Notes: generated from the sequence alone by a model not told the origin. Positions 1,992 through 20,599 are shown, counted from the first letter of the stretch. The stretch is DNA of 64,000 nt from an uncultured delta proteobacterium (GCA_963785725.1 CAWAWS010000033.1:1-64000); one strand, 5' to 3'. Translations and numbers: made by a program.

Positions 1992-3089
1992 TTAGTCGCG
2001 CTCCTCGGGCCGGATATGCGGCGTTTCGTCGTCGGTGAGATGGTGCGAGTGCACGGCGACCGCTTGCGCGTTGAACTTCTCGCCGCCGATCGCCACTTCA
2101 TTGACGTGTCGATCGCCCATGGCCACTGTCGCGCGCTCGAGCTCCGCGCGCGTCAGCCGGCGTTTCCACTCTTCGTCGGCGATGATGACGCCGTCGACCA
2201 GCTTCGACGTGTCGACGCCGCGGCTCTCGAGCAGCGGCAGGAGCGCGTAGCGCGCGAGCCCGTGCTCGCCAATCTCCACCGGCTTCAGCGCACGCAGCAC
2301 CACCTGTTTGACCTGCACGGCCAGATGGTCGTCAGCATAAATACGGATGCCGCCGCGGATGGGCTCGCCGAAGTAAGCGACGCCGTCCACCGGTTTGCCG
2401 TCGAGCACCAAGCCTTCGCCGGGCACGAGCTCGGGCGGCTTCTTGTCTACGTAGACCATGACCGCCGCGATCTTGTCGGGCATGTAGTGGTTGCCGAAGT
2501 TGGGCGGGACGACGGGGATCGCTTTACCGCCGATGACGCTGCCGAAGCGGAACATGAAGTTTTGCCCGTTCTTCGAGCGCAGCTCGGCGCCGGAAGCGAT
2601 GATGACCTCGCTCAGCTTCGGGCCCATCAAATGGATCTGATTGATGTGCGCGACGTCGACTCCGTAAGCGCGCAGCAGATCGATGAAGCGATAGCGACGC
2701 GATTTGACGATGACGTAACCGGGGCTGTGACTGCCGGGCTCGATCTCCGCCGAGTGCTTCTCTTCGACCCACACCGGCTCGAGTCGCGCCGGCAGCTCGC
2801 CGAAGCCGAGCACGCCGACCGGTTTGCCGTCGACGTACACGGTCGTGTCCTTCCACTTGTTGTTGCCGTTCTGATGTCGGCCGCCGCCACCCGCGTTGCT
2901 GTTGCTGCCGTCGTCGTCGTCGCCGGTGAGCGTGCGCGCGGCGGCCGCCTCGGCCGCGCGGCCGGCGCCCCATTGAGTCGACGCTTGCGCCTGACCGATG
3001 ATCTGACGGTCGCGGCGCTCGCAGCCCGTAGTCACCGCAATGCCGACGAACGGAACGAGCGCCATACAGTAGAGGAGCCGGTCACGCAT
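1992..3089 (-). CDS. Hypothetical lipoprotein
   Basis: Lipobox-like IAVTTGC after a hydrophobic stretch, globular body and typical codon usage. Start could be 3107. Confidence 0.75.
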   Translation of the reverse strand: MRDRLLYCMALVPFVGIAVTTGCERRDRQIIGQAQASTQWGAGRAAEAAAARTLTGDDDDGSNSNAGGGGRHQNGNNKWKDTTVYVDGKPVGVLGFGELPARLEPVWVEEKHSAEIEPGSHSPGYVIVKSRRYRFIDLLRAYGVDVAHINQIHLMGPKLSEVIIASGAELRSKNGQNFMFRFGSVIGGKAIPVVPPNFGNHYMPDKIAAVMVYVDKKPPELVPGEGLVLDGKPVDGVAYFGEPIRGGIRIYADDHLAVQVKQVVLRALKPVEIGEHGLARYALLPLLESRGVDTSKLVDGVIIADEEWKRRLTRAELERATVAMGDRHVNEVAIGGEKFNAQAVAVHSHHLTDDETPHIRPEERD

Positions 3090-3248
3090 GCGCGCCTGCC
3101 AGTGCATCGGCCGTTCCAGCGGGTGGAGGCCATGTCAAGCATCGTTGGCAGCGCGAAGCTGGGGGAATAGGCTCCGAACTGGGGAGCCACGACTCAGTAG
3201 GGACCGCAATGACGTCCACAAGTGTTGAAACTGTTTTGAATTCACTAC

Positions 3249-3264
3249 TGGCACGATGATCGCT
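3249..3264 (+). promoter_or_regulatory. Putative sigma54 promoter
   Basis: TGGCACGATGATCGCT (GG-N10-GC) just upstream of the ATG at 3278. Confidence 0.5.
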
Positions 3265-3277
3265 TTACACGGACGCC

Positions 3278-3886
3278 ATGAACCGAAGAATGGCTCCGTT
3301 GGTCTTGGTCCTTGGCTTGACGGTCGCCAGTGCGGGCTGTCTCGGCTCCGCTAAATCGGACGGTGGCGGCGGCGGCGGCGGCAGCGCCGGCGGCAGCGGC
3401 AAAGGTGGCGGTGGCGGCAGCGCCGGCGGCAGCGGCGGTGGCACCACCAGCGGCGGCGACGGCGGTATCACGCTCGGCGTCCAATTGTGCGACGCGACGT
3501 TGTCGATCGCCGGCACGTTCGTGCAGGGAGACCCGCCGCCGTCCGATCTCGGTGGCGGCTGCTGGCCCGACGGCATGTGGACCTTCACCGCGACCGTCAC
3601 CGACAACGGCGGCTGCCCGACGGCGCCGCCGATCCCGCCGCAGTTCCAGTACAAGGTCGTGCAAGACGACGACTTCAACGACACGATCACCTACCTGACC
3701 GATCCGACGAATATGTTCACGCCGAGCTCGATTTCGGGCGGCGACGGCGCGATCTGCGTCGGTGAGTTCATCATCTACAGCAGCGACGGCAAGTCGATCT
3801 TCAACCTGCGGCCGGCGTTGCAGGCGGACAACTCCCTCAACGGTGCGGGCGACTGGGCCTTGTACAACAGCGATCAACGGAACTGA
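3278..3886 (+). CDS. Gly-rich-linker lipoprotein
   Basis: Lipobox SAGC, poly-Gly linker and a beta-rich C-terminal domain. The stop overlaps the next start (TGATG). Confidence 0.8.
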   Translation: MNRRMAPLVLVLGLTVASAGCLGSAKSDGGGGGGGSAGGSGKGGGGGSAGGSGGGTTSGGDGGITLGVQLCDATLSIAGTFVQGDPPPSDLGGGCWPDGMWTFTATVTDNGGCPTAPPIPPQFQYKVVQDDDFNDTITYLTDPTNMFTPSSISGGDGAICVGEFIIYSSDGKSIFNLRPALQADNSLNGAGDWALYNSDQRN

Positions 3887-4458
3887 TGAAGGTCGCGATC
3901 CCGCTCTTCGTGCTCGTGCTCATCGGCGCGGGCTGGTGGTTGCGACACGAGGAGAGCGCGCTCGCACGGCCGGCGGCGACACCGGGACGCACGGCGCCAC
4001 TCGAGCGACCTACGCAGCAGCTCGCGATACCACGAATGACGGCGCAGCCAACGGTCGCTGCCGCCGCTCCAAGCGCCGCGCCGGAGAAGCTCGCGCTCGG
4101 CGACGAGGCGCTGCGCAAGCGGCTCGATGAGGTCATTCCCATCCGGCTCTCGGGCGAAGCGGCGCGCTGCTACAAAGGCGGCCTCGACCGCAATAAGCGC
4201 ATCGATCTCACCTATCGCCTGCACGTCGAGGACAGCCGCGTGATGGTGCACGACGTTCGCATCGGCGAGAGCACGCTCGGCGATCGCGCGCTCGAAGACT
4301 GCATTCGTCAGCGCGTGGCGAGCATGACCTGGCGCGATGACCAGCTGCCCGACATCGACGAAGAGGACAACCTCTACCTCAGCGTTCGCCAGTTCAAGTC
4401 GTTCACGGGCATCGACAGCGAGTCCACCGACGGCACCGAGCCCGGCATCGCCCGCTAA
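3886..4458 (+). CDS. Membrane-anchored protein with a possible TonB-C/AgmX-PglI-like C-terminal domain
   Basis: N-terminal TM helix, Pro/Ala linker, and an ARCY...STLGDRALEDCI pattern typical of myxobacterial TonB-C-like domains. Confidence 0.6.
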   Translation: MKVAIPLFVLVLIGAGWWLRHEESALARPAATPGRTAPLERPTQQLAIPRMTAQPTVAAAAPSAAPEKLALGDEALRKRLDEVIPIRLSGEAARCYKGGLDRNKRIDLTYRLHVEDSRVMVHDVRIGESTLGDRALEDCIRQRVASMTWRDDQLPDIDEEDNLYLSVRQFKSFTGIDSESTDGTEPGIAR

Positions 4459-4465
4459 AGGCAGC

Positions 4466-6409
4466 TCAGCGCCACACGCCTTCGATCGTCGCCGTCACCG
4501 TCGTCGGCAAAGCCGTCAATCCCGGCAGCAACAGATACTTTTGGTCGAACAAGTTATCGACGTGGATGGCGGCGCGAATGGTGTTGTTGATGCGCGCCCA
4601 GCCATAGAGGTCGAAGACGTCGTAACGCGGCAGCATCGCCTGCTGCACGAAGCGCTCGGACACCCAGCGAAAGCGCAACACGCCGCCCAGTCGTTTGCGC
4701 CACGTCGAGGCGACATAGGCGTCGATGCGATGGTTGGGAAAATTGGGAATCGCGTTGAACAGCAGCTGCGGCGAGGCGGAATAGGCGTCTTCGTAGATAT
4801 ACGTAAGCCCGGCGCCGATGATGCGGTCGCGCGCGATATCGAAGCCCGTCTCCAAGCCGCGCACGTTGACGGTGTCGAGGTTCTGATTCTGCCCCGCGGT
4901 CGGTCCCGTGCCGCCGAGGCGAATGAGGCCGTCGATGCGGCGCACGTAGCCCGAGAACCGCGCGGCGAACAGCGGATGCGGATGCACCTGCACCTGCACT
5001 TCGCCGTGCCACGTCTGCTCCGGCGTCAAATTCGGATTGCCGACGGTGTTGGTACAGATGCCGTTCGCCGTCATCCCCGGCTTGATGGCGTTGCACGTCG
5101 GATCGTAGAGCTCGCGCAGCGTCGGCAGTCGCCCTTTGCGCGCGCCGATGAGGTAGATGCCGATCGCTTTGTTCGGCTGTCCGCCGACGACCACCTTCGC
5201 CTCCGGCCACGAGCCGCCGACGTGCGTGAACGGCACGAGCCCGCCTACCGCGGCCTCGGCCGTGAGCCAGTGCCAGCGCAGCTTGCCGCCGATCGCGAGC
5301 TCGCCGTAGCTGGGGAACTCCCAGCGTCCGAGCGTGCCCGTCTGCCGAATCTGCATGCCCTCGCTGTCGACCGACAGGCGCGCCGAGAACGTCGCGTGCA
5401 CGTCGCCCGCAAAGACGAACGGCCGATCGACGTGCAGCGCTTCGCCCACGCGCCACGAGAGCAGCTGCTGCACGCTCGTCAGCGACTTGAGCGTGTAGTC
5501 CGTGTAGAAGTTCGTGTCGCGCGACAAGAGCTCGCCGTACGCGCCCAACGCGATGCGAAAGCCGCGCGACTGAAATTCGCCGCCGATGACCAGGCGCGCC
5601 CCGTCCTCGGACGTGATGTCTTGCAGCGCGTTGCCGGTGTTGTCCGACGGCGGAATGAAGAACGAGCGGTGGCCGTACCACGCGTCGGCGGTGAAGCGAC
5701 TGTCACCTTTCTGGTATTCGAGCCGCAAGGCCGTCGTCACTTGTGACTCGCGGTCATTGAAGTTGCCCGGCATCGTGTTGTTCGACGCGACGACCGGATA
5801 CGTCGGGTCGTCGAAGCGCGCGCCGGCCGACGCGCGAATGCCGAAGTTGCCCGGCAAAGGCGTGCGCCCACTGACCGCTGCTTCGCCGCCCGGTGTCGAG
5901 CTGCCGACGACGCGACCATCGATCATGCGGCTGCCGATGGCGCGCACCGTGGTCACTTCGATGATGCCACCGTCGCCGCCCGGCCCCTCCAGCGGCGACG
6001 CCGGCGCCAGCTGCACGCGGATCTCGACGATGTCGGTGATGGGAATGGCGCCCACGTCGAAGATGCCGTAGTAGGGCTCGTCGATGGGCACGCCATCGAT
6101 GAGGATGAGGATCGAGAACTGCTTGGCGCCGCGCACGTCGACGCGCGTGCCCATGCCGCCCTGGCGCACCTGCACTTCGGGGATGAGCTCCAGCGCGTCG
6201 GCCAACGACTGCGCGCCGCGCTCTTTGATCTCCTTGGCCGTCAACACGATCTGCGGCGTGTCGTCGTCGCGCCTGGGTCGCGCGTGCACGGTGCTCTGAT
6301 ATTCGCGTGGTGGCGGCGTCGTGCTGGCGCTGTCGGGCGTCTGCGCGCGCGCCACGCCGGCGCAGCTGAGGAGGCCGAGAACGATGAAGTGAGCAGCCGA
6401 GCCGCGCAT
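4466..6409 (-). CDS. TonB-dependent receptor
   Basis: Signal peptide, plug motif (LADALELIPEV...VRG...ILIDGVP), GNPNLTPEQ, and NLFDQKY near the C-terminus. Confidence 0.9.
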   Translation of the reverse strand: MRGSAAHFIVLGLLSCAGVARAQTPDSASTTPPPREYQSTVHARPRRDDDTPQIVLTAKEIKERGAQSLADALELIPEVQVRQGGMGTRVDVRGAKQFSILILIDGVPIDEPYYGIFDVGAIPITDIVEIRVQLAPASPLEGPGGDGGIIEVTTVRAIGSRMIDGRVVGSSTPGGEAAVSGRTPLPGNFGIRASAGARFDDPTYPVVASNNTMPGNFNDRESQVTTALRLEYQKGDSRFTADAWYGHRSFFIPPSDNTGNALQDITSEDGARLVIGGEFQSRGFRIALGAYGELLSRDTNFYTDYTLKSLTSVQQLLSWRVGEALHVDRPFVFAGDVHATFSARLSVDSEGMQIRQTGTLGRWEFPSYGELAIGGKLRWHWLTAEAAVGGLVPFTHVGGSWPEAKVVVGGQPNKAIGIYLIGARKGRLPTLRELYDPTCNAIKPGMTANGICTNTVGNPNLTPEQTWHGEVQVQVHPHPLFAARFSGYVRRIDGLIRLGGTGPTAGQNQNLDTVNVRGLETGFDIARDRIIGAGLTYIYEDAYSASPQLLFNAIPNFPNHRIDAYVASTWRKRLGGVLRFRWVSERFVQQAMLPRYDVFDLYGWARINNTIRAAIHVDNLFDQKYLLLPGLTALPTTVTATIEGVWR

Positions 6410-6630
6410 TGAACGACGAGCAGATGCAATGAAGTTGCCACTCGACGGCCGGCGAGCGCTCTCGACTCCGCTCGACATCGGCGACATCCGGCCCGCCTTC
6501 TCGACTGCGCGGTCAGCGGCCCGGTGGCAGCGCGGCGATAGTCGAGATTCGCCCACGCCGCATCATATACCGCCGCCCGAAAACGCAGGCCGACAATGGC
6601 CGGCTTACCCAACGATCAGCCGCCAATCGC

Positions 6631-6780
6631 TACGTGTTTCTGCGGAGCGAGCGGCTGCGTCATTCTACGCAGACGTTGCCAGCGTGGCGACCTGACACCC
6701 CAAAGCGGTGGGTACGGACCCCGCGTTCGCTCCGTAGATCTGCGGTTTGCCGGGCGTTTTGTAGTGGCGACGCGCTTGCA
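6631..6780. promoter_or_regulatory. Divergent control region: three TCCGTA-N4-TACGGA-like sites and a sigma54-like promoter
   Basis: TACGTGTTTCTGCGGA at 6631, TGCGTCATTCTACGCA at 6656, TCCGTAGATCTGCGGT at 6731. TGGCGACGCGCTTGCA (GG-N10-GC) at 6765-6780. Confidence 0.5.
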
Positions 6781-6793
6781 CTAGCGAGCCGCC

Positions 6794-7171
6794 ATGGAAA
6801 CGAGGGGCTTTCTCAGCAGCTTTGGGGTGGGATTGGCGATGTCGGTGTTGCTCGCAGCTGTCGCCGGCTGTGGCGGCACGCTCGATCCGGAGCCGGCGAT
6901 CGGCGCCGACATGGCCAAGGTCAGCAGCAACAGCAGCAGCGACGACATGGCGCAGTCGAGCAGCGCGAGCGGCGGCGATATGTCGCTCTTGCCGCTCTTC
7001 GCCGCGTGCACCGAGAACGCGCAGTGCGCCAGCATGCTGTGCTCGCAAGCGAGCTACGATCGCTCGCCGACGCCGCTGTGCACGTACGCGTGCGATCCGA
7101 CGACCGACACCAATCCGCTCTGTCCCGACGGCTGCAATCCCAAGTTCTTTTGCAAGATGCCGAGCAACTGA
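6794..7171 (+). CDS. Small 8-Cys lipoprotein
   Basis: Lipobox VAGC, Ser-rich linker, C-terminal 8-Cys module ending CNPKFFCK. Confidence 0.8.
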   Translation: METRGFLSSFGVGLAMSVLLAAVAGCGGTLDPEPAIGADMAKVSSNSSSDDMAQSSSASGGDMSLLPLFAACTENAQCASMLCSQASYDRSPTPLCTYACDPTTDTNPLCPDGCNPKFFCKMPSN

Positions 7172-7460
7172 GCGAGTCCGCTTTACCGCCGCGACGGGGA
7201 TCGCGGCAGCCGAGCGGGCGTCAAACCATGCGACTCCAACGCAATCGCCAGCGCCCGAATTCGCTGCTCGCCCACGATGAGCTCGCGCTCGTGCTGGTCA
7301 TGCGTCGCCAACGTCGGCTGCCCGAGCTCGCCGCCGGTCGGCTCGCGCAGACTGACGGCGGACGGCGGTCGTCACGGATTGTCACCCCGTCGACGATGAC
7401 GTATGCTCACGCCGTGCGATTCATGTCCGCGCTGGCAGGTCGCAGCCCGATGGTGAGCCA

Positions 7461-8708
7461 ATGAGCGAGAACGGGCGAACGCCAAAGACGATCGACCCGC
7501 GCTTGCGCGTGCTCTTCTTGATCGTCGTCGCCGTCGGCATCTTCCTCTTGCCCAAGATGTGGATGGTCGGCGTCGCGACGGTGGCGCTCGGCATCCTGTG
7601 GATCGCGGTCGGCTTGCCGCCACGCCGGCTCGCGCGCCAGGTCTACAAGCTGATCCCGTTCACGATCATGATCCTCGCCTCCTACGCGTTCACCAAAGAG
7701 GACTCGGCGGTCGATCGCTGGCAGCACATCGCGATCGGCTCGCACGACCTCGCCATCAACGTCGGCGGCGCGGCGATCGGTCTCCTCATGGTGCTGCGCG
7801 TTCTGTCGGTCGTCATCGCGTCGCAGGTCGCGCGCGCCGGCGATATGCGCGCCATCGCCCACGGCCTCGGCAAGCTCGGCCTACCGCGCATGGCCGCCGT
7901 CTCGATCGACGCGGTCCTCGCACTCCTCGGAGGAGGAGGAGGAGGAGGAGGCGGTGGCGGTGGTGGCGGCGGTGGCGGTGGCGGCGGTGGCGGCGGCGGC
8001 GGCGGTCATGGCCGCGGGCAGAAGTCGTTCACCGGCTTTTGGACCTCGCTCAAGCAGCTCGCGCGCGGCGACGTGCAGCCCATCGTCAATCGCTTGCAGC
8101 GACAGATTTCGCGCGCCGAGGAGCACATCGCCGGCGGCGGCTTGGCCGATGAGCGCGGTCGCCAGGTCGCGCGCGACGTCGCCGTCATCACCGGCGTGGC
8201 GCTGACGATGCTCGGCATCAAGGCGCTCAAGGTGCTGCCCGGCATCCCGTTCGCGCCCGGCTACAAAGTAGTTCTACTGACGCCGCTCTACATCGTCGCG
8301 GCGCTGCTGACGCGCACGCGCTTCGGCGCGACCATCACCGGCTTCGCCATGGGCACCGTCGCGTTCCTGCTCGGCGACGGCAAATACGGCGTCTTCGAGA
8401 TCGCCAAGCACGTCGCGCCCGGCCTCATCGCCGACTTGATCGTGCCCATCGTGACACGCGGCGAGCGCATGCCCGGCGGCATCGGCTGGTCCTTGATCGG
8501 CGCCGTCATTGCGATCGGCCGCTTTGCGACCATCCTTGTCATCACCGCCGTCGTCGCCGCCCCGCGCGTCGCCTACGCCATTCTGATTCCCGGCCTCGTC
8601 GTCCACGTGACGTTCGGCGCCGCTTCCGGCTACGTCAGCTATCACCTCGTCAAGGCAGTCGCTCGTCTGCGCGAGGAATACAAAATGAGCGATGAGGAGC
8701 TCGCATGA
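7461..8708 (+). CDS. ECF transporter T-component (CbiQ/EcfT-like) with a poly-Gly insert, fused to an S-component-like membrane domain
   Basis: N-terminal IDPRLR and TM helices like EcfT, an ARG motif (QLARGD), and a C-terminal multi-TM domain (TRFGATITGF...PGLIADL). The stop overlaps the mosA start (ATGA). Confidence 0.65.
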   Translation: MSENGRTPKTIDPRLRVLFLIVVAVGIFLLPKMWMVGVATVALGILWIAVGLPPRRLARQVYKLIPFTIMILASYAFTKEDSAVDRWQHIAIGSHDLAINVGGAAIGLLMVLRVLSVVIASQVARAGDMRAIAHGLGKLGLPRMAAVSIDAVLALLGGGGGGGGGGGGGGGGGGGGGGGGGGHGRGQKSFTGFWTSLKQLARGDVQPIVNRLQRQISRAEEHIAGGGLADERGRQVARDVAVITGVALTMLGIKALKVLPGIPFAPGYKVVLLTPLYIVAALLTRTRFGATITGFAMGTVAFLLGDGKYGVFEIAKHVAPGLIADLIVPIVTRGERMPGGIGWSLIGAVIAIGRFATILVITAVVAAPRVAYAILIPGLVVHVTFGAASGYVSYHLVKAVARLREEYKMSDEELA

Positions 8709-9544
8709 GCAAGTTGATGCAGGGGGACGGGCGAACGCACATCGATTCGCCGTTGATGCGCGAGTCGCTCGTCGATCGCCGCGTGATCGCCAAGACGCAC
8801 TCGGAGCGCGAGTTCGAGGTGCTGCCGGACGTCATGCTGGTCAGCATCGGCGGCCAGTCGATCTTCGATCGCGGCAGGGAGGCCATTCTTCCCGTCGCTG
8901 ACGAGCTGGCGGCGGCGCGTGGCAAGGTCAAGATGATCGTCGGCGTCGGCGGCGGCACGCGCGTACGTCACACGATCTCGATCGCGCTCGACCTCGGCTT
9001 GCCGACGGGCGGCGTCGCGCAGCTGGTGGGCGCGATGGAAGAGGCGAACGCCGTGCTGCTCAACGCGCTGCTCGCCAAGAAGCGCTCGATGGTCATGCAG
9101 CGCGAGCACTTCTGGGAGCTGCCGCTCTATCTCGAGAACGGCATGCTGCCGATCGTCATCTCGGTGCCGCCCTATCACTTTTGGGAGCCGCCGTCGGAGC
9201 TCGGACCGCTGCCGACCCACGGCTCGGACTTCGGCCTCTTCATCCTCGCCGAAGTGTTGGGCATGAAGAAGGTCATCTTCGTCAAAGACGTCGACGGCCT
9301 TTACGAGAGCGATCCCAAGCTGCATCCGGACGCGAAGATCATCAAGAAGACGACGCTGGCGGCGCTCTATCCGCACTTGCCGGCGGAGCTGCCCATCGAT
9401 CGTCAGCTGTTCGACGCGTGGCGGACGGCGCGGCACGTCGAGCGCATTCAGATCGTCAACGGCCTCATTCCGGGCGAGCTGACGCGCGCGTTGGCCGGCG
9501 AAGAAGTCGGAACCGTCATCGATCGAGGTGAGACCCATGCATGA
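8705..9544 (+). CDS. mosA: Molybdenum storage protein alpha-like subunit (amino-acid kinase/UMP kinase fold)
   Basis: HIDSPLMRESL, IGGQSIFDRG, PPYH, KDVDGLY, ARHVERIQIVNGLIPG and GEEVGTVI resemble Azotobacter MosA as I recall it. Confidence 0.8.
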   Translation: MSKLMQGDGRTHIDSPLMRESLVDRRVIAKTHSEREFEVLPDVMLVSIGGQSIFDRGREAILPVADELAAARGKVKMIVGVGGGTRVRHTISIALDLGLPTGGVAQLVGAMEEANAVLLNALLAKKRSMVMQREHFWELPLYLENGMLPIVISVPPYHFWEPPSELGPLPTHGSDFGLFILAEVLGMKKVIFVKDVDGLYESDPKLHPDAKIIKKTTLAALYPHLPAELPIDRQLFDAWRTARHVERIQIVNGLIPGELTRALAGEEVGTVIDRGETHA

Positions 9545-10355
9545 TGAAACGCAGATTCCGCAGCGCCGTGACATCGCCGGGCCGCTCGTCGGCGCGACGC
9601 TGACCTCGGGCGTCGCCAACCTCGAATACAGCCCCGTCGCGCTGATGCCCGACACCAAGGTCATCAAGATCGGCGGGCAGTCGATGATCGATCGCGGTCG
9701 CGCCGCCATCTTCCCGCTGCTCGACGAGCTCGTCGCGGTCAAAGACAAGTACAAGCTCTTGTTGTGCTGCGGCGGCGGCAGTCGCGCGCGCCACATCTAC
9801 TCGGTGGCGAGCGAGCTGGAGATGCCGACGGGCGTCTTGGCGGCGCTCGGCGGCTACGTGCCGCGGCAGAACGCGCGCATGCTGCAGATGCTGCTCGCCA
9901 AGCACGGCGGCGTGTTCATGCTGCACGACGACTTCGAGAAGCTGCCGCTCTACTTCAAGATGGGCTGCATCCCGATCATGACCGGCATGCCGCCGTTCGG
10001 ATATTGGGAGAAGCCGAGCGAGGAAGGTCGCATTCCGGCCAACCGCACCGACGCCGGCGTGTTCCTGTCGGCCGAAGTGTTGGGTGTCAAGCGCGCGCTG
10101 TTCATCAAGGACGAGGACGGGCTCTACAGCGACGATCCGAAGAAGAACTCGAGCGCGAAGTTCATCGCCAAGATCGGCGCGCACGAGCTCTTGAAGATGG
10201 ACCTCGACGATCTGATCCTCGAGCGCGTGGTGTTCGAATATTTGACGCGCGCGCGGTTCTGCCACGAGCTGCAGATCGTGAACGGCCTGAAGCCGGGGCT
10301 GGTCACGCGCGCGCTCGCCGGCGAAGACGTCGGCACGATCATCTACAAGGACTAG
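9537..10355 (+). CDS. mosB: Molybdenum storage protein beta-like subunit
   Basis: VIKIGGQSMIDRGRAAIFPLLDE, GMPPF, EGRIPANRTDAG, FIKDEDGLY and TRALAGEDVGTII resemble Azotobacter MosB. Overlaps the mosA stop. Confidence 0.85.
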   Translation: MHDETQIPQRRDIAGPLVGATLTSGVANLEYSPVALMPDTKVIKIGGQSMIDRGRAAIFPLLDELVAVKDKYKLLLCCGGGSRARHIYSVASELEMPTGVLAALGGYVPRQNARMLQMLLAKHGGVFMLHDDFEKLPLYFKMGCIPIMTGMPPFGYWEKPSEEGRIPANRTDAGVFLSAEVLGVKRALFIKDEDGLYSDDPKKNSSAKFIAKIGAHELLKMDLDDLILERVVFEYLTRARFCHELQIVNGLKPGLVTRALAGEDVGTIIYKD

Positions 10356-10587: not shown

Positions 10588-10854
10588 ATGCGCAATCTAC
10601 TTGCCATCGTCGCGCTGGTCGCCCCACTCGTCGCATCAGCCGCCGATCGGCCGACCGGAGAAGTCCTCGGCAGGGCGGAGCTTCCGCCAAAGGTAGAGGC
10701 AACATTCGAGCGGCAGGCGGGCGCCCAGGGGCTCGAACACATCCGCCGAGCCAGGGATTCGCACGGCCACGTGATCTACACTGCTGAAATCGCCGGCTCC
10801 GGCCGCGTTGTCGCGGTGACGCCCGACGGCAGCGTCCGGGCAGCCGCACGATAG
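10588..10854 (+). CDS. Small secreted PepSY-like protein
   Basis: Signal peptide, LPPKVEATF...YTAEI...VAVTPDG pattern, AGGA RBS. A sigma54-like CGGCCTCCGATATGCA lies at 10560-10575. Confidence 0.65.
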   Translation: MRNLLAIVALVAPLVASAADRPTGEVLGRAELPPKVEATFERQAGAQGLEHIRRARDSHGHVIYTAEIAGSGRVVAVTPDGSVRAAAR

Positions 10855-11172
10855 CCGGACAACCGGAGGGTCAATCGGTAAGCGCTCGCCGAACAGCATC
10901 GGCCGAGCGCCGTAGGATCTCGAACCGGCGCGACGCTGGCACGAGCACATCCTCTCGATTCACAGCGCTCACGACGTCCTCGCCGAACGGATACGAAGAA
11001 TCAGCGTGATGTCCGCGCTCGGTATTCAGACAGCGCTATCGCTGCACGTAAAAGCGTGCCGCGAGTCGTTCGGATGAATCTCCGCGGAGATGAATGGCGC
11101 GACGGGTGATCGACTTGGATCAAGGCGTACTTGGTCACCTGCGCGTTCCGGTCGAAGCACGATAGATACGAA

Positions 11173-11380
11173 TCATGTTGGACCGTCGCCGGCTTTCGGG
11201 TCGACGTACGCGCGGATCTTGGTCACGTGGTTGACGCGCGGCAGCGGATCGCCTGGCCGGCTCATGCGTCGCCCTTGGCCGTGATACGGCGGGAACGCAC
11301 TGGCCGGATCGACCACCGCGGCGGCGATCGTGCCGCGGCGGTCTCGGTCAACACGAGAATCGGATCGCCGTCGCCCTTCG
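11173..11380 (-). pseudogene. Duplicated 3' fragment of the lipoprotein gene at 14031-14555
   Basis: 11201-11379 aligns with 14041-14220 (about 20 mismatches and one 1-nt gap in 180 nt by hand). It encodes RRGTIAAAVVDPASAFPPYHGQGRRMSRPGDPLPRV. Confidence 0.85.
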
Positions 11381-11518
11381 CCGCAGCCCTCGTGTTCGTC
11401 CTCGTCGCCGCCGACAGATTCGGGCGCAGGAGCGCATTCGTCGGACGCTCGTGTGATCGTGACCCCTCGCCCTCCTCGCACTCTCGGCCGATAACCAACG
11501 AGAGGCGAACAAACGCAA

Positions 11519-12719
11519 ATGCCAGGCGCATCGAGGCTCGGAGACAAAGCTCAGGTTCAGCAAGACGCGCACGGTTGTCCGGGGTGCCCTCATCCCGGTG
11601 TGGGTCCTGCGATCGCGGGATCTACAAACGTCATCATCAACGGACGACCGGCTGTGCGGCTCGACGACGTGGGCATCCACGCCGTCTGCTGTGGCCCCAA
11701 CATGTGGTCGGCCGCTCAGGGTTCGACGACGGTTTTCATCAACGACAAGCCCGCCGTTCGCAATAACGATCAGACCCGTCACTGCGGCGGCACGGGCAAG
11801 ATGGTCGAGGGCTCTCCCGACGTCATCATTGGCGGAGCGGCCGGCACGGCGAGCGGATCCAGCGGTGGTGGCGGCGGAGATAATGGTGGCGCAAGCGGAA
11901 GCGCGGGGTGGCGGAGCAAGCGCGGGTGGCGGAGCAAACAGCGGAAGCGGAGGCAGTGGCGCAAAAAGCAGCGGCGCTGGCGCCGCGCCTGCCAATACAG
12001 CGAAGGCCCCACCGTCGCCCGTGAAGCTGCCCGCAGTCACGGTTACAGCTCGCCCCGATGCACCTGGTGCCACTGACTCACCGCCGCTGTCGGCAGACAA
12101 GCTGACGCCGGAGAAGACCGACGACGAAACCGACTTCAAGAAAAAGGTCTACAAGAAGCACTGCGAGAACGCCGCCAAGCGCCGCAAACGGTCCGATGGC
12201 GTTCCTCCGTCGGAACTAGCGGACGTCGAGAACGGACATAAGATGCGGCGAGACGCTGCCGCCGCTTGTAATAAGCTGTTCGTCGAAATGCGCGCCGACC
12301 TAGCGAAGCAGAAGGCCGCCGGCGACGCGCACGCTGCGAAGGTCAGTGTCATCACGCTGACCTCCGGTTACCGCGATCCCGAATACGATCAACAACTGTG
12401 GGACCGCTACTACGACAAGTATTACAAGGAGACCGCTAAGAAGCGGGCAGCGACGGGGGATATACACGGCGCCGAATCCGTCGATATTCTAGCGACGCAA
12501 ATAGCGCATTACAAAGCAGCGCCCGGGTTCAGCAACCATACCGACGGTGACGCCTTCGACGCGACGACGACGGAATCGGGCGTCCATTATACGAGTGACC
12601 ACAATCAGAATGAGGCATGGGAAAAAACATGGTTGCGTCAGTGGCTGAAGAACAACGCATCCCGCTTTGGCTTCGTGCCGCTCGGGACAGAAGCGTGGCA
12701 TTGGGACTATCGCGGCTGA
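11519..12719 (+). CDS. PAAR-domain protein fused to an M15 (VanY/D,D-peptidase-like) domain; one frameshift at ~11905-11908
   Basis: PAAR N-terminus (ASRLGD...GSTNVIINGRPAVRLDD...GSPDVIIGG). C-terminal SGYR, APGFSNH-x6-D and EAWHWDY. Removing one G from GGGG joins the two frames. Confidence 0.8.
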
Positions 12720-13192
12720 TGTTTGCGTTGCTGCTCTTGGGAAGCACCAGCGCTATTGCGCAGACCCAAACAGCCGATCGGCCGACACGGATCGCTCTCG
12801 ACTGGCTGCAGACGCTCCGCAGTAACGACATGGGCAAGCTCGCGGCCGCCAGTCAGCTGCCTTTCGTCCAAGAGGGATTCAGCGGCTGCAACGCGAAGCG
12901 AGCGGACTCAGCCGCTGACCTGACGCTGTTGCTCGGGTGTGTGGCACATAGCGACAAATTTTTCGTCGCGAGTATCCCGGCCCAATCGGATGCATTGGCT
13001 GATTGGCATTCACTCAAGCTCAACGATGTTCCGCGAGGCCTCAGGAAGAAGGCATCGTCGCTCGCAAAGGCGAATGTGCTCATCGGCGGAGCGCTCGATG
13101 GTGATGGCGTCTCATATCGTGTCGTGATTGTCGTCTCGAAGAGCAGCGCGAGCGTGACCGGCGTTTTGCTGGAGCCAAACCTGGCGGAATAG
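12719..13192 (+). CDS. Secreted/periplasmic protein, putative immunity protein
   Basis: TGATG overlap with the effector stop and a signal peptide (MFALLLLGSTSAIA). The immunity role is inferred from position. Confidence 0.6.
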   Translation: MFALLLLGSTSAIAQTQTADRPTRIALDWLQTLRSNDMGKLAAASQLPFVQEGFSGCNAKRADSAADLTLLLGCVAHSDKFFVASIPAQSDALADWHSLKLNDVPRGLRKKASSLAKANVLIGGALDGDGVSYRVVIVVSKSSASVTGVLLEPNLAE

Positions 13193-13261
13193 CGTCGGAG
13201 GCTATGGCGCCTGGCCCGCCGGCAACACTCCCCACATAACGCCCGCGCTTCTGGCACGAGC

Positions 13262-13930
13262 TCAGCTCGTGAAGCGCTTGAAGCCGGGAAAGCAAATTCC
13301 GGTATCGCTCTGAATGAACCACGGAAGCCCAGGCATTGCTCCGAACTGCAGATCGATGATGGAGCTCAGGAGCATCAGCGCACTGAGCGCTTGAGCTCGT
13401 ACTTCCTTCTCGGTTTCCTCGTTGAAGTGCAATGACTCGTTTCTCAGTTGTTCGAGTTTCACGAAGGCATCCGATGTCTCGCCGCGGAGTACCTGCCACT
13501 CACTGAGGATACGGATGACGTTGGTCCAGTTGTCGAATGAGTCCTTCCGATAGACATGTTTGTAATCTGGCGTCGATCTAAACCGATCACGCAGGTTCAA
13601 AATCAGATGATTGAGGATTCGCTCGCCGAGTGCGCACGCGCCTGTGAGCGCGGGATAGTAGCTTCCAAGAACAAATGCGTTGCGAGCCTGGGCAAGAAAA
13701 CGTTTATGAAAGGCGATGACAGAGCATGGTTCAGCGCCGATGGCCAAGAAGTCCTGAAACTTTCGTTCTGCGTCGATCTCCCCAAATTCTGCGATGAGAC
13801 CGCGTCGGATTTGGGCGCGATTCTGCTCGTGCAGTTGCTTGACCTCAGGGGCCCAGTTGCTCCCGATCTCGAACTTGAACATGTTGGCTCGAAAGTCGAA
13901 CGCAATCTTCAGCACTCGGTAGCGCTTCAT
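13262..13930 (-). CDS. HEPN/DUF4145-like protein
   Basis: Lower GC, helix YYPALTGACALGERIL and an R-x4-H motif (RNESLH). Confidence 0.6.
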   Translation of the reverse strand: MKRYRVLKIAFDFRANMFKFEIGSNWAPEVKQLHEQNRAQIRRGLIAEFGEIDAERKFQDFLAIGAEPCSVIAFHKRFLAQARNAFVLGSYYPALTGACALGERILNHLILNLRDRFRSTPDYKHVYRKDSFDNWTNVIRILSEWQVLRGETSDAFVKLEQLRNESLHFNEETEKEVRAQALSALMLLSSIIDLQFGAMPGLPWFIQSDTGICFPGFKRFTS

Positions 13931-14030
13931 CGGCTCTCCATCGCGTCTGTTTCGTCAGTGCTTCCTTGGTCAGCCAGGACCGACTGGTCTCGTCGGCGTT
14001 CCTTTATCGAACGGGATGCGGTGGAGGTCG

Positions 14031-14555
14031 CTATTTAGGCTCGACGTACGCGCGGATCTTGGTCACTCCGTTGACGCGCGGCAGCGGGTCGCCCGGACGA
14101 CTCATACGCCGGCCTTGGCCGTGATACGGCGGGAACGCGTTGGCCGGATCGACCACGGCGGCGGCGATCGTGCCGCGGCGGGTCTCGGTCAGGACGAGGA
14201 TGGGATCGCCATCGGCCTTGGGTGCGCGAAAGACGATGCCGACTCCCTTGTCGCCGCTCACTTCGGCGACGGCGCCGGGACGATCGGCCGCCGGCCCGAT
14301 CAGCGTCGTCAGCCGCCACGCGCGATGCTCGGCGTCCTCGAAGTCGGCCTTGGTCGCGCGCAGCTTGTCGGCGTCGATCGCCGGCGCGGGCTTGCCGTCG
14401 ACTTCCACTTCGATGCGCAGCGGCGCGATGGCGACCGTCGGCGGCGGCGTCAGCTTCGGCATCTCGCGCGTCGCGTTGGCGTCAGTCGACCGACGGCAGC
14501 CGACGGTGGCGACGAGGCTGCCGGCCAAGATCCAGCGCGTCCAATTCGTCGGCAT
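14031..14555 (-). CDS. Hypothetical lipoprotein
   Basis: MPTNWTRWILAGSLVATVGC lipobox. Its 3' end is duplicated at ~11.2-11.4 kb. Confidence 0.75.
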   Translation of the reverse strand: MPTNWTRWILAGSLVATVGCRRSTDANATREMPKLTPPPTVAIAPLRIEVEVDGKPAPAIDADKLRATKADFEDAEHRAWRLTTLIGPAADRPGAVAEVSGDKGVGIVFRAPKADGDPILVLTETRRGTIAAAVVDPANAFPPYHGQGRRMSRPGDPLPRVNGVTKIRAYVEPK

Positions 14556-14595
14556 CCGTTCATGCTGGCACTCGCGACGACAGGGCGCAATGACG

Positions 14596-14640
14596 ACGAT
14601 AGGCCTACGGATTGACACCCGTCGACGACGCTCCTAAACT
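14596..14640 (+). promoter_or_regulatory. sigma70-type promoter with an abutting operator
   Basis: ACGATAGGCCTACGGA (14596-14611) is directly followed by TTGACA-17 nt-TAAACT. Confidence 0.65.
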
Positions 14641-14662
14641 GAAAGTCCCGAGGAGGGCTGTC

Positions 14663-15151
14663 ATGCGTAGATTGTTGGGCGTCGCGGCAATGGGTCTCAT
14701 GCTAGGTGCACCGAACGCGTTCGCCAACGTCGAGCCTCCGACCGTCGGTGGCGGCCACATGAAGCACTGCCCGACGGCGGTGCCCGGTGCCAAGACGCAG
14801 ATTACCGACGGCAAAGACGCGATCGAGATCGTCGTCACCGGCAGCGACGCGGCGAAGACCGCGGAGATTCGCACGCGTGCTCAGCATGTCGTCGAGTCCT
14901 CGAAGGCCGACCCAACGAGCGTCGCGCACGACGGCAGCGGTCACGGCGGTGGCGGCCTCGGCATGTGCGAGATCGTCCTGAAAGACACCACGGTCACCGC
15001 CACCGACGTCGACGGCGGCTCGAAGTTCGTCGTCAAGCCGATCAAGCCGGTCGATCTCGAGTGGCTGAAGAAGGAGACGCATACGCGTCACCTCGCGAAT
15101 ACGAGCTCGAGTGGCAAGAAGAAGCCGACCAAGTCGGCCTCCGCTCAGTAA
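14663..15151 (+). CDS. Secreted His/Cys-containing hypothetical protein
   Basis: GGAGG RBS, signal peptide, and motifs HMKHCP and HDGSGHGGGGLGMC. Confidence 0.8.
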   Translation: MRRLLGVAAMGLMLGAPNAFANVEPPTVGGGHMKHCPTAVPGAKTQITDGKDAIEIVVTGSDAAKTAEIRTRAQHVVESSKADPTSVAHDGSGHGGGGLGMCEIVLKDTTVTATDVDGGSKFVVKPIKPVDLEWLKKETHTRHLANTSSSGKKKPTKSASAQ

Positions 15152-15176
15152 CTCGTCAATCTGCGCAACCGTCGCC

Positions 15177-15455
15177 TCACAGCTTCTTACAGTATCCGTG
15201 CTTGTTGCAGACGCCGCTCGTCAGCGGCTTCGGGCAATCGGTCGCCGCCGTCTCCTGCTTGCACACCATCGAGCAGTACGCGTTCGAGCCGCCGATGAAG
15301 CAGGCTTTGCTCTGACACTCGCTGTCTTTGCCGCAAGTGGCACCGAACGCTCCAGGGGCGCTCGGTGCCGCGGTGCTGTCGCTTGCAGACGTCGCCATGC
15401 GACGACAGGCCGGCGCGAGAAGTAGCAGCGAAGCCAACACCAGTGTCGCGCGCAT
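15177..15455 (-). CDS. Small 8-Cys lipoprotein
   Basis: LAPAC lipobox and an 8-Cys module ending CNKHGYCK. Lies downstream of modC. Confidence 0.8.
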   Translation of the reverse strand: MRATLVLASLLLLAPACRRMATSASDSTAAPSAPGAFGATCGKDSECQSKACFIGGSNAYCSMVCKQETAATDCPKPLTSGVCNKHGYCKKL

Positions 15456-15515
15456 GAATCGATCTTACGCGACCGCCGGCAGCGCGCGATAGGAAAGCGC
15501 CGACACGCTCGCGGC

Positions 15516-16229
15516 CTACACGAAGTCGTCGAAGACGTCGCGACTGTCGGGCAAGAGCTCGTCGATGCCGCCGACGGCTTTGACGCGGCCCGCCTCCATC
15601 AGCGCCACGCGGTCGCCGAGCGCGCGCGCCTCGTTGCGATGGTGCGTGACATGGATGACCGGCACGCGCGCTTCGGCGACCCACGCGCGCAGGTCGGCCA
15701 CGAACTCGCGGCGCAGCGCCCGATCCATCGCCGAGAAGGGCTCATCGAGCAGCACCAAGCGCGGCGCCGGCGCGAACGCGCGAGCGAGCGCGACCCGCTG
15801 TGCCTCGCCGCCGGAAAACGTCGCCGGGCGACGTGTCGCCAGATGCGCCACCTTCATGCGCGCCAGCATCGCCGTCGCTCGCTGCAGCCGCTCGGCCTTG
15901 GGCATGGCGCGCGGCAGTCCATATTCGACGTTCGCGACGGCCGTCATATGCGGAAACAGCGCCAGCGACTGAAACACGAACGAGATGCCGCGCTTCTCCA
16001 CGCGCCGATCGATATGTCGTGCGGCGTCGAACCACACTTCGCCGCCGAGCGCCACGCGACCCGAGGTCGGCTTCACGAGCCCCGCGATCGCCGCCAGCGT
16101 CGTCGATTTGCCGGCGCCCGACGGACCAAACAGGATGGTCACGCCCGGCGTCACGGTCAGATGCACGTCGAGCTGAAAGCCGCCGCGACGCTCGATGCGC
16201 AAGTCGACGTCGAGCGTCGTCTCAGCCAT
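15516..16229 (-). CDS. modC: Molybdate ABC transporter ATPase
   Basis: Walker A GPSGAGKS, FQSLALFPH, signature FSGGEAQR and LLDEPF. Confidence 0.9.
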   Translation of the reverse strand: MAETTLDVDLRIERRGGFQLDVHLTVTPGVTILFGPSGAGKSTTLAAIAGLVKPTSGRVALGGEVWFDAARHIDRRVEKRGISFVFQSLALFPHMTAVANVEYGLPRAMPKAERLQRATAMLARMKVAHLATRRPATFSGGEAQRVALARAFAPAPRLVLLDEPFSAMDRALRREFVADLRAWVAEARVPVIHVTHHRNEARALGDRVALMEAGRVKAVGGIDELLPDSRDVFDDFV

Positions 16230-16887
16230 GTTTGCGCTTTCCCGTCAGCTTGTTGACCGCGTACAGCGCGAAGATGGCAGTGCTCGTGAGGATCGCGACC
16301 ATCCCGGCCGCGGCGTGCTCTTCGTGCGACTGAATGAGATCGTATATCGCCAGCGACGCCGTCTGCGTCTGTCCCGGGATATCGCCGGCGACCATCAATG
16401 TGACGCCGAAGTCGCCGAGCGAGCGCGCGAACGCCAGCATGACGCCGGCGATGAGCCCGCGCGACGCCAGCGGGAGATGCACCGTCAAGAACACGCGCAG
16501 TCGACCGGCGCCCAGCGTATGCGCGGCCTCGAGCAGCTTGTCGTCGACGCCCTCGAGCGCGGCGCGCGCCGCTTTGATGACGAGCGGCAGCGCGCCCAAC
16601 GTCGCCGCGATGACCGCGCCCGTGCGCGAAAAGACGATGGTGCCGCCGGTCAGCGATTGCCAGGCGCGCCCGACCAAGCTGTGCCGCCCGAGCGAGACCA
16701 AGACGTAGTAGCCGAGCACCGTCGGCGGCATGACCAACGGCGCCGACGTCACCGCGTCGATGAAGTCGCGCCCGAACATGCGCTTCTGGCTGAGCAAGAG
16801 ACCGATCGCGACGCCGATGATCGTCGCCAGCACCGTCGCGATGAGCGCCACGCGGAACGAGAGCGCGAGCGGTTCCCAGTCGGTCAC
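16222..16887 (-). CDS. modB: Molybdate ABC transporter permease
   Basis: PLVMPPTVLGYY, FARSLGDFGVT and GDIPGQTQT. Confidence 0.93.
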   Translation of the reverse strand: MTDWEPLALSFRVALIATVLATIIGVAIGLLLSQKRMFGRDFIDAVTSAPLVMPPTVLGYYVLVSLGRHSLVGRAWQSLTGGTIVFSRTGAVIAATLGALPLVIKAARAALEGVDDKLLEAAHTLGAGRLRVFLTVHLPLASRGLIAGVMLAFARSLGDFGVTLMVAGDIPGQTQTASLAIYDLIQSHEEHAAAGMVAILTSTAIFALYAVNKLTGKRKHG

Positions 16888-16896
16888 GCCTCGATG

Positions 16897-17676
16897 TTAC
16901 TTCGCCGAGGCGGTCCGCGTCTCGCCCGGCAAAAGAAAGCCATAGTGACGCATGATGGCGCGGCCCGCCGGCGAGCTGACGTAAGCCGTGAACGCGCGCG
17001 CTCGGGCTATTCGCTCGCGATCTTCGCCGCACACGACCAGCGCTTGATCGATCGGCGCATGATCGAGCTCGGAGATTGGCAGCCAATCGCCGTCGGTCGC
17101 CGTCGTCGCCAGCGACATCGCGACCACCGCGACTTCGGCGTTTCCCGACTGCGCGAACTGCAGCGTCTGCTGCACGTTCTCACCGAAGACGACGCGCGAC
17201 TTCAGCTGATTCCAGATGCCCGCTTTCGTCAGCGCCTCGGCGGCGGCTTTGCCGTACGGCGCGTGGGCCGGATTCGCGATCGCGACCTTGACGAAGCGCG
17301 CGTCGGCCAGCTCCGCCAGCGTCTTCGGCGGCTTCACGGTCGAGCTCTTCGGCCACCAAAGCACGATGCGACCGCGTGCATAAGATGTCTTCGAGTCGGC
17401 GAGACAGACGCCGGCATGAACCGCGTCATCGACGAACGACACGTTGGCCGCCGCGAAGACGTCGAACGGCGCGCCCTCGGCCAGCTGCTTCTCCAATAGA
17501 CCGGTCGAGCCGAACGTGAAGACCACCTTGTCGCCGTGGTCACGCTCGAAGGCGGCGCCGAGCTCCTTGAACGCGACCGCCAAATCGGCTGCGGCCGCTA
17601 CGCGCAGCGGCGCCGCGAACGCCGGTGTCGACAGCAACGAAAGGACGACGACTCCCAGGCTCCGTATGACGCGCAC
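16897..17676 (-). CDS. modA: Molybdate-binding periplasmic protein
   Basis: VAAAADL, FGSTG, GAPFDVF, AIANPAHAPYG and GENVQQ. Start uncertain (17676-17712). Confidence 0.92.
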   Translation of the reverse strand: MRVIRSLGVVVLSLLSTPAFAAPLRVAAAADLAVAFKELGAAFERDHGDKVVFTFGSTGLLEKQLAEGAPFDVFAAANVSFVDDAVHAGVCLADSKTSYARGRIVLWWPKSSTVKPPKTLAELADARFVKVAIANPAHAPYGKAAAEALTKAGIWNQLKSRVVFGENVQQTLQFAQSGNAEVAVVAMSLATTATDGDWLPISELDHAPIDQALVVCGEDRERIARARAFTAYVSSPAGRAIMRHYGFLLPGETRTASAK

Positions 17677-17860
17677 GCACAACGCAGTCAGCAATAGTCG
17701 ATCCACGAGCAAAGCCGCGCGGCGGTTGCGTGCGGCGACGCCGAGCCTGGGGAGTCGTCTCCCCGATCTACGTAGATTCCGCAGTTTTCCCCCACCCAGA
17801 CAAGGTCGGTTGACTCGCGGCGATACCCGAGTTTTCGATGTTTAGCGGCCGCTACGGAGC

Positions 17861-17876
17861 CGGCATATGCGTTGCA
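17861..17876 (+). promoter_or_regulatory. Putative sigma54 promoter
   Basis: CGGCATATGCGTTGCA (GG-N10-GC) with an adjacent TACGGA half-site at 17853-17858. Confidence 0.5.
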
Positions 17877-17888
17877 CAGCGCGGTCGC

Positions 17889-18329
17889 ATGAAAATTTAT
17901 CTGTTGGCGTTCGCATTCGCCGTCGCTGGTGTGGGCTGTGGTGGGTCTTCGTCGTCGAACAACGAGCCGGACATGACGGCGTCGGGCGGCGGTGGCGGTT
18001 CTGCGGGTGGTGGCGGCACCGCGGGCGGCGGCGGCACTGCAGGTGGCGGCGGCATCGCTGGCGGCGGCGGCTCGGCCGGCGGTGGCGGCAGCGAAAAGGA
18101 CGGCGGCACGGAAAAGGGCGAAGACGGCGGCACCAAAGGTGCGTACGGAGCGCTCTGCACGGACACCGTCAACGGCAGCGATTGCCAGAGCGGCATGTGC
18201 GACCCGTTCGAGCAGGGCGCAGTCAAGCGCTGCACGATCGCTTGCACGACGGCCGCCGAATGCCCTGCACCTGCGGTCGGCTGCACCGCCACCAACGGCC
18301 AGTCCGGTCACTGCAAGTTCGCCAACTGA
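17889..18329 (+). CDS. Gly-rich 8-Cys lipoprotein
   Basis: AGVGC lipobox, GGGG(S/T)A repeats and an 8-Cys module ending GHCK. Confidence 0.8.
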   Translation: MKIYLLAFAFAVAGVGCGGSSSSNNEPDMTASGGGGGSAGGGGTAGGGGTAGGGGIAGGGGSAGGGGSEKDGGTEKGEDGGTKGAYGALCTDTVNGSDCQSGMCDPFEQGAVKRCTIACTTAAECPAPAVGCTATNGQSGHCKFAN

Positions 18330-20479: not shown

Positions 20480-20525
20480 CCGCCGACGACCGAGGTGTGC
20501 GCGCCCCGATCGGCGCCTCCAGTCT

Positions 20526-20584: not shown

Positions 20585-20599
20585 AACTAGGCTGCTCCG

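Follow-up and report, generated by a model that had tools for sequence, protein, structure and literature searches.

The molybdenum storage protein (MoSto) is an (alpha-beta)3 cage that holds about 100 Mo as polyoxomolybdate in an ATP-dependent manner. Bruenle et al. 2019 reportedly place ATP-driven loading at the beta site, which is closed by the alpha arm and gated by Met149. In Azotobacter vinelandii the two subunits, MosA and MosB (PDB 2OGX, 4F6T, 6GU5), are adjacent paralogues with the amino-acid-kinase fold. Two papers describe MoSto as a nitrogen fixer's store with few relatives (PMC6448029, PMC11980592), and a third calls MosAB 'restricted to select taxa', although its figures or supplements may name non-diazotroph carriers (PMC13144720). 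Here we describe a MoSto-like pair, Mos1 and Mos2, from an uncultured delta proteobacterium (GCA_963785725.1), a non-diazotroph host. The window, i.e. the whole stretch of 64,000 nucleotides analysed (CAWAWS010000033.1:1-64000), opens contig C33 in an 8.9 Mb genome (G000) that is 88% complete and whose closest Mos1 relatives carry a Polyangia label. As in A. vinelandii, the two genes are adjacent paralogues of the amino-acid-kinase fold; here they are also tied, and in some relatives fused, to a membrane protein that resembles energy-coupling factor (ECF) transporters and that we call T+S. No such protein is encoded beside the two Azospirillum loci read. The central genes are as follows, with family frequencies among related mos loci.

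7461..8708, plus strand: T+S, ECF-like membrane protein with an EcfT-like N half, a Gly-rich linker and a weakly S-component-like C half with invariant basic residues
8705..9544, plus strand: Mos1, MoSto-like subunit with an alpha-type N-terminal arm; equivalents of His156 and His168 present, Lys45 replaced by Ser47 and Arg169 by Gly173
9537..10355, plus strand: Mos2, MoSto-like subunit with equivalents of beta Lys42, Arg83/85, His86, Met149, Arg168 and Lys189
15516..16229, minus strand: modC, short form, score 220 against a cut-off of 285; family in 45/80 loci
16222..16887, minus strand: modB, TIGR02141 score 211 against a cut-off of 182.6; 48/80 loci
16897..17712, minus strand: modA, TIGR01256 score 192 against a cut-off of 62.5; 52/80 loci

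The 80 mos loci are the best 80 of 145 found, ranked by similarity to Mos1, and a reverse set of 80 metagenome loci (the best of 252) was drawn with the T+S protein's own profile; where two figures are given for a family, the first refers to the mos loci and the second to the T+S loci. The phylum sample comprises 301 Myxococcota genomes, 19 of them with a mos pair, and the 69 carrier genomes are the window genome plus 68 others (50 of the 80 loci and 18 from the phylum sample).

Tentatively, and with a probability of about 0.48, we read the locus as a membrane-tethered molybdenum uptake-and-store system serving enzymes that use the molybdenum cofactor (Moco), in which ModABC would import molybdate, T+S would dock and feed the cage and Mos2 would do the ATP work. 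The observations behind it are the homology to MoSto, a separate pyrH gene, the linkage and fusion of T+S to the pair, the adjacency of modA, NarG upstream in L040, the presence of moaA, the retained ATP-site residues of Mos2, and searches that found neither nitrogenase nor EcfA/CbiO. On this reading the storage machine would take up its molybdenum at the membrane and not free in the cell, and a separate MoSto subfamily would serve organisms that use Moco, both within Myxococcota and in a scatter of other phyla. In the literature searched, which covered few subscription papers and not the Ermler structure papers, the Mos subfamily, its membrane partner and its surface module are undescribed; the proteins themselves are already known to annotation, with JGI naming them 'molybdenum storage protein'.

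The Mos1-Mos2 pair

In phmmer searches against A. vinelandii MoSto, Mos1 scored E 1e-62 and Mos2 E 1e-70, and UMP (uridine monophosphate) kinases about 1e-7. An identity as UMP kinases was rejected, since the true pyrH lies elsewhere in the genome, on contig C19. The first-pass annotation had called the genes mosA and mosB and proposed this very comparison with UMP kinases; it came out clearly in favour of MoSto. The labels themselves fared less well, in that both genes score better on MoSto beta than on MoSto alpha. Both proteins are 36-46% identical to Azospirillum alpha and beta. A quick C20 tree of 86 rows places Mos1 on the alpha side (SH-like approximate likelihood ratio test, SH-aLRT, 85), while LG+G4 trees of 34 of these rows unite Mos1 with Mos2 and set them off from both canonical subunits, with an ultrafast bootstrap (UFBoot) of 72 when the N-terminal arm is included and 92 when it is left out. 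A plain MosAB assignment was abandoned, because the trees disagree on orthology and two of the three cluster ligands named in the literature are replaced. Judged by sequence, Mos1-Mos2 is a distinct MoSto subfamily that would work like MoSto without being demonstrably MosA plus MosB.

The residues at the ATP site and the metal cage were compared by carrying the A. vinelandii numbering over via the Azospirillum orthologues. Counts for Mos2, the N-terminal arm and newly found invariant residues refer to a 56-row alignment, those for alpha-site and cage residues to 89 Mos1-type proteins. Mos2 appears fully equipped: the equivalents of beta K42, R83, R85, H86, M149, R168 and K189, which we take to form the ATP/molybdate site, are present in 56/56 rows. 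The Mos1 motif HIDSPLMRESL aligns with the alpha arm; its S21 and L22 are invariant (56/56 each) and H12 is found in 48/56, the other eight being gaps from shorter start calls. The second ATP site tells a different story. An equivalent of alpha Lys45 occurs in 0/89 Mos1-type proteins and the Arg169 position is Gly in 88/89, a loss that is coordinated across the whole clade. Mos1 keeps His168 and, in the cage, His156 (88/89 each); His156 and Glu129 are covalent Mo8 ligands of MoSto (PMC4504029). The beta ATP-site residues, the alpha-type arm and His156 are thus shared with A. vinelandii MoSto, whereas the alpha-like subunit lacks Lys45 and Arg169 and has lost, besides Glu129 and His140, the cage residues His130, His114 and Glu108. 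New invariant residues have appeared in Mos1, namely Arg133 and His135 together with Glu112 and Glu113 (the RE/DH and EE set). The pattern would fit an intact Mos2 pump combined with a dead second ATP site in Mos1. With the ATP site of one subunit lost and the cage ligands changed, the subfamily also offers naturally occurring variants on which the ATP pump could be tested.

Further variants were noted among the relatives. P0011 is a single chain of 467 aa that fuses Mos1 and Mos2, although its N end may be miscalled. P0123, P0127, P0129, P0130, P0131, P0133 and P0141 represent further deep MoSto-like clades with an alpha-type arm and the ATP-site Lys, and some of these (P0123 etc.) could be single-subunit forms.

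An ECF-like membrane partner

The T+S gene overlaps mos1 by 4 nt and is the most conserved partner of the pair, present in 79/80 mos loci. The association holds in the reverse direction: mos genes lie downstream in 58 of the 64 T+S loci that have at least 300 nt of downstream sequence. Within the phylum sample the S half occurs in 12/301 genomes, and all 12 are among the 19 mos carriers. T+S-Mos1 fusion proteins are encoded in L040, L064, L181, L182 and L209, which probably represent one lineage. P0132, a member of a different clade, is such a fusion too, so that at least two lineages have them.

Known ECF transporters consist of EcfAA'T plus an S component (BioMNY, CbiMNQO, and the Trep_Strep/MptD and YkoE types), and two Arg-containing coupling signatures are assigned to the T component (PMC3246461). 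The N half of T+S is EcfT/CbiQ-like. CbiQ (PF02361) is matched over its cut-off by the window protein and by 38/56 family members, and the family profile matches EcfT structures (4hzu_T) with E 4e-4 over profile positions 5-155. The C half weakly resembles S components, with Trep_Strep matches in 5/56 members (best E 4.5e-4) and an Atlas value of 0.92 to a cluster in which 20% of the members carry PF09819. A single ARG-like signature lies at 201-203, its Arg less than 85% conserved, and R218 is conserved in 55/56 as part of a non-canonical second motif. Unlike ECF transporters, T+S joins T and S by a poly-Gly linker, is surrounded by molybdenum genes, lacks an ECF ATPase as far as could be found and carries invariant basic residues in its S half: K269, R287, K316, H317 and R354 are present in 56/56, and Asp306, Glu313 and Asp325 are likewise invariant. 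Such basic residues would suit an anion. No ECF system linked to molybdenum appeared in the literature searched.

EcfA/EcfA' and CbiO were each sought in five genomes, including the window's own (88% complete). No genome reached the TIGR04520 cut-off for EcfA/EcfA' (the highest score was 176 against 315) or the TIGR01166 cut-off for CbiO (143 against 212); only 3/14 and 2/14 controls passed, respectively, and divergent ATPases of either kind could be missed. T+S is the sole CbiQ-family match in 4/5 genomes. A predicted complex of Mos1, Mos2 and T+S scored 0.00, with a mark of 0.32, and was counted neither way.

Molybdenum supply and demand outside nitrogen fixation

The observation that no nif gene lies in the window extends to the whole genome at its 88% completeness: PF00148 (NifD/K) has 0 matches, and PF00142 (NifH) has five weak partial matches, the best at 33 bits. 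Elsewhere, the NifD/K family exceeds its cut-off in 6/68 other carriers. The best match was typed in each of the six; four are BchB and two fall below every nitrogenase cut-off. A nitrogenase link was rejected, as nitrogenase is the best NifD/K-family match in 0/68 other carriers, and the view that a MoSto-like pair stands here outside nitrogen fixation is borne out in the window genome and the 68 others alike. BchB, a protein of bacteriochlorophyll synthesis, belongs to four Polyangia-type carriers (G314, G328, G333 and G338; L116-L119), and G334 and G169 have untyped nitrogenase-like genes.

The molybdate importer is conventional in part. ModA and ModB pass their equivalog cut-offs like those of described ModABC systems; ModC lacks the TOBE domain and falls under its cut-off because it is short, yet modC is still its best-matching family. 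Neither ModE nor Mop was found, and the single TOBE match is a sugar ATP-binding cassette (ABC) ATPase. On the demand side, moaA is present in 68/69 carriers (55 over cut-off), the window genome included. The latter further encodes a 711-aa Mo-bisPGD (bis-pyranopterin guanine dinucleotide) enzyme, located 8 kb beyond the end of the window, an FdhF/YdeP-like molybdoenzyme whose gene reads as two open reading frames (ORFs) in different frames (G000:C7:78546-81069), and three PF00174 matches, so that the genome-wide search for Mo and W enzymes turned up Mo enzymes and moaA. The XDH model has no match in the window genome. In another carrier, L220 (G341:C1:2152067-2158765) combines an oxalate/formate antiporter, an orphan ModA-like gene and a formate dehydrogenase-like gene with an in-frame TGA that is likely to encode selenocysteine.

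Possible readings: coupled storage, import or co-regulation

The proposed uptake-and-store system can be set out as a sequence of steps. Exported PruR-fold, propeller and cytochrome proteins, introduced below, would gather or mobilise molybdenum at the cell surface, and ModABC would import molybdate. T+S would then dock Mos1-Mos2 at the inner membrane and bind the oxyanion through its invariant Lys, Arg and His residues. Loading would be driven by ATP at Mos2, with Mos1, its ATP site dead, contributing only the lid arm and the wall, if these sites have the roles reported for MoSto. Finally, a cage with a changed ligand set may buffer molybdenum for Moco synthesis.

Several observations weigh against this proposal. 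The Glu129 position is Gln in 85/89 Mos1-type proteins, and His140, which we take to be the threefold cluster ligand, is Tyr in 88/89; because both are replaced, bulk storage of molybdenum may have been lost. Few Mo enzymes were identified in the window genome, which makes the demand for a large store questionable. The linkage is not obligatory, since 6/64 T+S loci have no adjacent mos genes (four lie behind cytochrome or propeller genes, another precedes modABC and one is uninformative), and the same Mos1/Mos2 type occurs without any S-half match in three genomes belonging to a single genus. The assignment of the C half as an S component, at 5/56 members, is weak. Lastly, the carriers are related, and the counts of loci and genomes are not independent.

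An unlikely alternative is that T+S and Mos1-Mos2 form a self-contained molybdate importer. ATP chemistry of the MoSto type would then stand in for the pair of ABC ATPases, and Mos would drive the S domain or trap the released anion. The failure to find EcfA/CbiO and the fusions in at least two lineages point in this direction, and two fusion carriers do so in particular. ModB is matched (E 1e-35) in 67/69 carriers, 60 of them over cut-off; only G327 and G341 have no match at this threshold. TupB is missing from both, as it is from the window genome, yet each has moaA and 4-5 PF00384 matches, and their weak ModA-like gene stands without an adjoining permease or ATPase. In this one lineage of Vulcanimicrobiota (Eremiobacterota) molybdate import may depend on the fused form alone. 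As the two genomes are kin and G327 is fragmented (G341 is a single 3.27-Mb contig), they amount to one suggestive case, and sulfate-type, WtpB-like or secondary carriers could serve instead. For the other carriers a second importer would be redundant beside ModB. Moreover, solitary S components can transport without a motor (PMC11109136), and ModC could moonlight on the ARG-like motif. A fuller version, an ECF-type transporter with a MoSto-type molybdate kinase in place of its ABC ATPases, fed by an undescribed surface system of pterin-fold, propeller and cytochrome proteins, seems to us doubtful to the same degree. A T+S protein for which no ABC ATPase was found and which is repeatedly fused to a storage subunit makes the possible coupling of membrane import to metal condensation directly testable.

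Rather less likely still is the absence of any physical coupling, with Mos1-Mos2 an ordinary cytoplasmic molybdenum buffer and T+S a solitary carrier or sensor that is merely regulated together with it as part of a Mo-starvation response. T+S and Mos each occur alone in some loci, and four of the 301 Myxococcota genomes have a more canonical beta-then-alpha pair and no T+S match (three of these loci were read). The S fold also serves receptors (PMC11109136). A 4-nt overlap, near-constant adjacency and repeated fusion are difficult to reconcile with this view, as is the fact that the Mos1 ATP site has been lost in a coordinated way throughout the clade.

Surface module and other exported proteins

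The remaining genes of the cluster encode mostly exported proteins.

1..1524, minus strand: exported beta-propeller, cut by the contig end; surface-module member, family in 44 loci including the window
1992..3107, minus strand: exported protein, likely lipoprotein, with two folds like the sulfite oxidase (SUOX) Moco domain/PruR; 43/80 loci and 10/301 genomes, all mos carriers
3278..3886, plus strand: small Cys-containing lipoprotein; 2/80 and 6/80 loci, adjoining the propeller in L224 and L225
3886..4458, plus strand: membrane-anchored accessory protein with a weak AgmX/PglI C-terminal-like domain (NF033768, 25.5 bits, cut-off 40); 0/80 and 2/80 loci
4466..6556, minus strand: TonB-dependent receptor, likely start near 6409, with Pfam plug and barrel; 1/80 and 2/80 loci
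6794..7171, plus strand: small Cys-rich lipoprotein, accessory; 3/80 loci
14031..14555, minus strand: lipoprotein, single-domain homologue of the 1992-3107 family; 17/80 loci
14663..15151, plus strand: exported protein with invariant Cys-Pro and Gly/His/Cys motifs, weak TusA-like match below cut-off; 22/80 loci
15177..15455, minus strand: small Cys-rich lipoprotein; 11/80 loci

In relatives the usual order is a 1992-like gene, the propeller, a diheme cytochrome c lipoprotein, an optional monoheme cytochrome, T+S, mos1, mos2 and modABC; in the window modABC is inverted with respect to this order. The first-pass annotation had drawn a cluster from 1992 to 18329, and the genes it listed (mosA/mosB-like genes, modABC, a TonB receptor, an ECF-like membrane gene and uncharacterised exported proteins) are all present there. 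The conservation of the neighbourhood holds as well, in that the mos pair is kept alongside modABC and undescribed exported proteins in related loci. The limits and the membership need revision. The cluster reaches left of 1992, because 1-1524 encodes a conserved member cut by the contig end, and 17838-18329 does not encode a conserved member; the TonB receptor drops out of the list, and 11.2-14.0 kb is a foreign PAAR cassette. The receptor was rejected as a core part on the rarity of its family (1/80 and 2/80 loci), and the idea of outer-membrane parts shifts accordingly, the top conserved partner being an inner-membrane ECF-like protein. A different, FecA-like receptor family occurs in 22/80 mos loci.

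The model of the 1992-3107 protein has a pLDDT of 89.5. In VIA it matches SoxC (Z 10.1, root-mean-square deviation (rmsd) 4.3, 118 aa), SorT (9.8), SorA (9.3) and PruR (7kp2; Z 7.3, rmsd 3.6, 114 aa), and the top ten rows all belong to the SUOX/PruR fold family; the best Foldseek match reaches only E 0.011, not <0.001. Sequence profiles of this family and of the 14031 and 14663 families found nothing in PDB or Pfam. Since no Cys that could ligate Mo is conserved in its domains across 40 sequences, as in PruR (PMC11194511), the protein is predicted to be a binder rather than an enzyme. It shares with PruR its export, the SUOX-like fold and the missing Mo-ligating Cys, and differs in its tandem two-domain build, the lack of a sequence-level match to PruR, and neighbours concerned with Mo transport and storage, propellers and cytochromes instead of a DcpA-type signalling protein. 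Profile-profile comparison links the 14031 family to it (probability 89.5%, E 2e-6), although the single 14031 sequence gave no significant match to the 1992 profile. From its sequence motifs, the 14663-15151 protein is a candidate metal or sulfur carrier. The propeller model (pLDDT 72) has only generic propeller matches (Z about 22), and no function was drawn for this reason; full-length relatives are about 610 aa long and end in a MYXO-CTERM-like anchor. The diheme cytochrome of relatives has two CxxCH motifs in 43/49 members, and the 3278-3886 lipoprotein family travels with the surface module in some lineages.

The propeller profile matches 10/301 genomes, all mos carriers; these are the same ten as for the 1992 family, even where the genes lie on other contigs. 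The independence of this co-occurrence is overstated, because the profiles were built from mos neighbours and the carriers are related. The module is best regarded as an add-on, as five of the 12 T+S genomes are without it. Its exported PruR-fold and propeller proteins are candidates for little-known steps of molybdenum capture outside the inner membrane. In the window genome, G000:C13:97036-99198 (L115) encodes a 14031-like lipoprotein and a diheme-family cytochrome whose gene is cut by the contig end, which possibly continues into window position 1. As a proven continuation it was rejected, given that paralogous cytochrome genes also end contigs C4 and C27.

These proteins invite a further reading, which we consider improbable: the salvage of bound molybdenum (molybdopterin, Moco or a Mo chelate, e.g. 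from prey), with the PruR fold carrying the pterin, the propeller and a TonB receptor capturing it, T+S bringing it into the cell and Mos storing the metal once released. The fold of two exported families is that of a pterin-binding protein (PMC11194511), ECF S components take up organic cofactors, a FecA-like receptor recurs in the loci and the surface module is confined to mos carriers. Almost every carrier, however, has moaA of its own, five of the 12 sampled T+S genomes do without the surface module, and the diheme cytochrome is left unexplained.

That the target is tungstate (for storage or detoxification) or another oxyanion is very improbable: MoSto does store W and protect against it (PMC6448029), ModA binds both oxyanions and the cage ligands differ here, but the window genome has no AOR match and no TupB, its ModA reaches 192 bits with TIGR01256 compared with 18 for WtpA, and NarG is the immediate upstream neighbour in L040. 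A tungsten-enzyme link was rejected. Mo is favoured over W, because ModA is an equivalog and both AOR and TupB are missing from the window genome. What stands of the Mo or W scavenging system first suggested is the conserved association of mos, modABC and exported proteins; plain MosAB and the outer-membrane receptor are not supported as parts of it.

Foreign insertion and genomic surroundings

The interval between mos2 and the 14031 gene is interrupted as follows.

11194..14033, no strand: unrelated insertion with PAAR and VanY-like ORFs and two ORFans; GC down to 0.57, 0/80 and 0/80 loci

It lies between two copies of the 3' end of gene 14031, which form a direct repeat of 186 nt at 88% identity (11194-11378 and 14034-14219). 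Its PAAR ORF and the overlapping VanY-like peptidase ORF, in different frames at 11519-12719 (plus strand), resemble a single antibacterial PAAR-effector gene that a frame change has broken in two, for which 12617-13192 could be the immunity gene; a PAAR paralogue is found at C30:58912-59307. Contigs of relatives show joints between 11488 and 12565 and between 13213 and 11200, a hint that the cassettes here form an array whose content varies. Other contigs join 11385 to 14228 and are no proof of an empty allele, because their short side lies within the repeat.

In the window and four further loci, Rfam detected neither a riboswitch nor any other family. Sequencing runs shared at most 0.21 of words, and the sole RNA run, with a share of 0.05 in short pieces, gave no sign of expression. 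Directly to the right of the locus, window positions 18396-21874 (plus strand) encode a NarX/NarL-type two-component pair and an ArsB-family membrane protein; L009 alone has the kinase family of this pair again behind mos2. At G000:C2:207682-208695 (L214) lies a second modA, 71% identical and without adjoining modB or modC. The genes around it correspond to the neighbours of the mos locus in L005 and L006, which suggests that the module moved between two sites.

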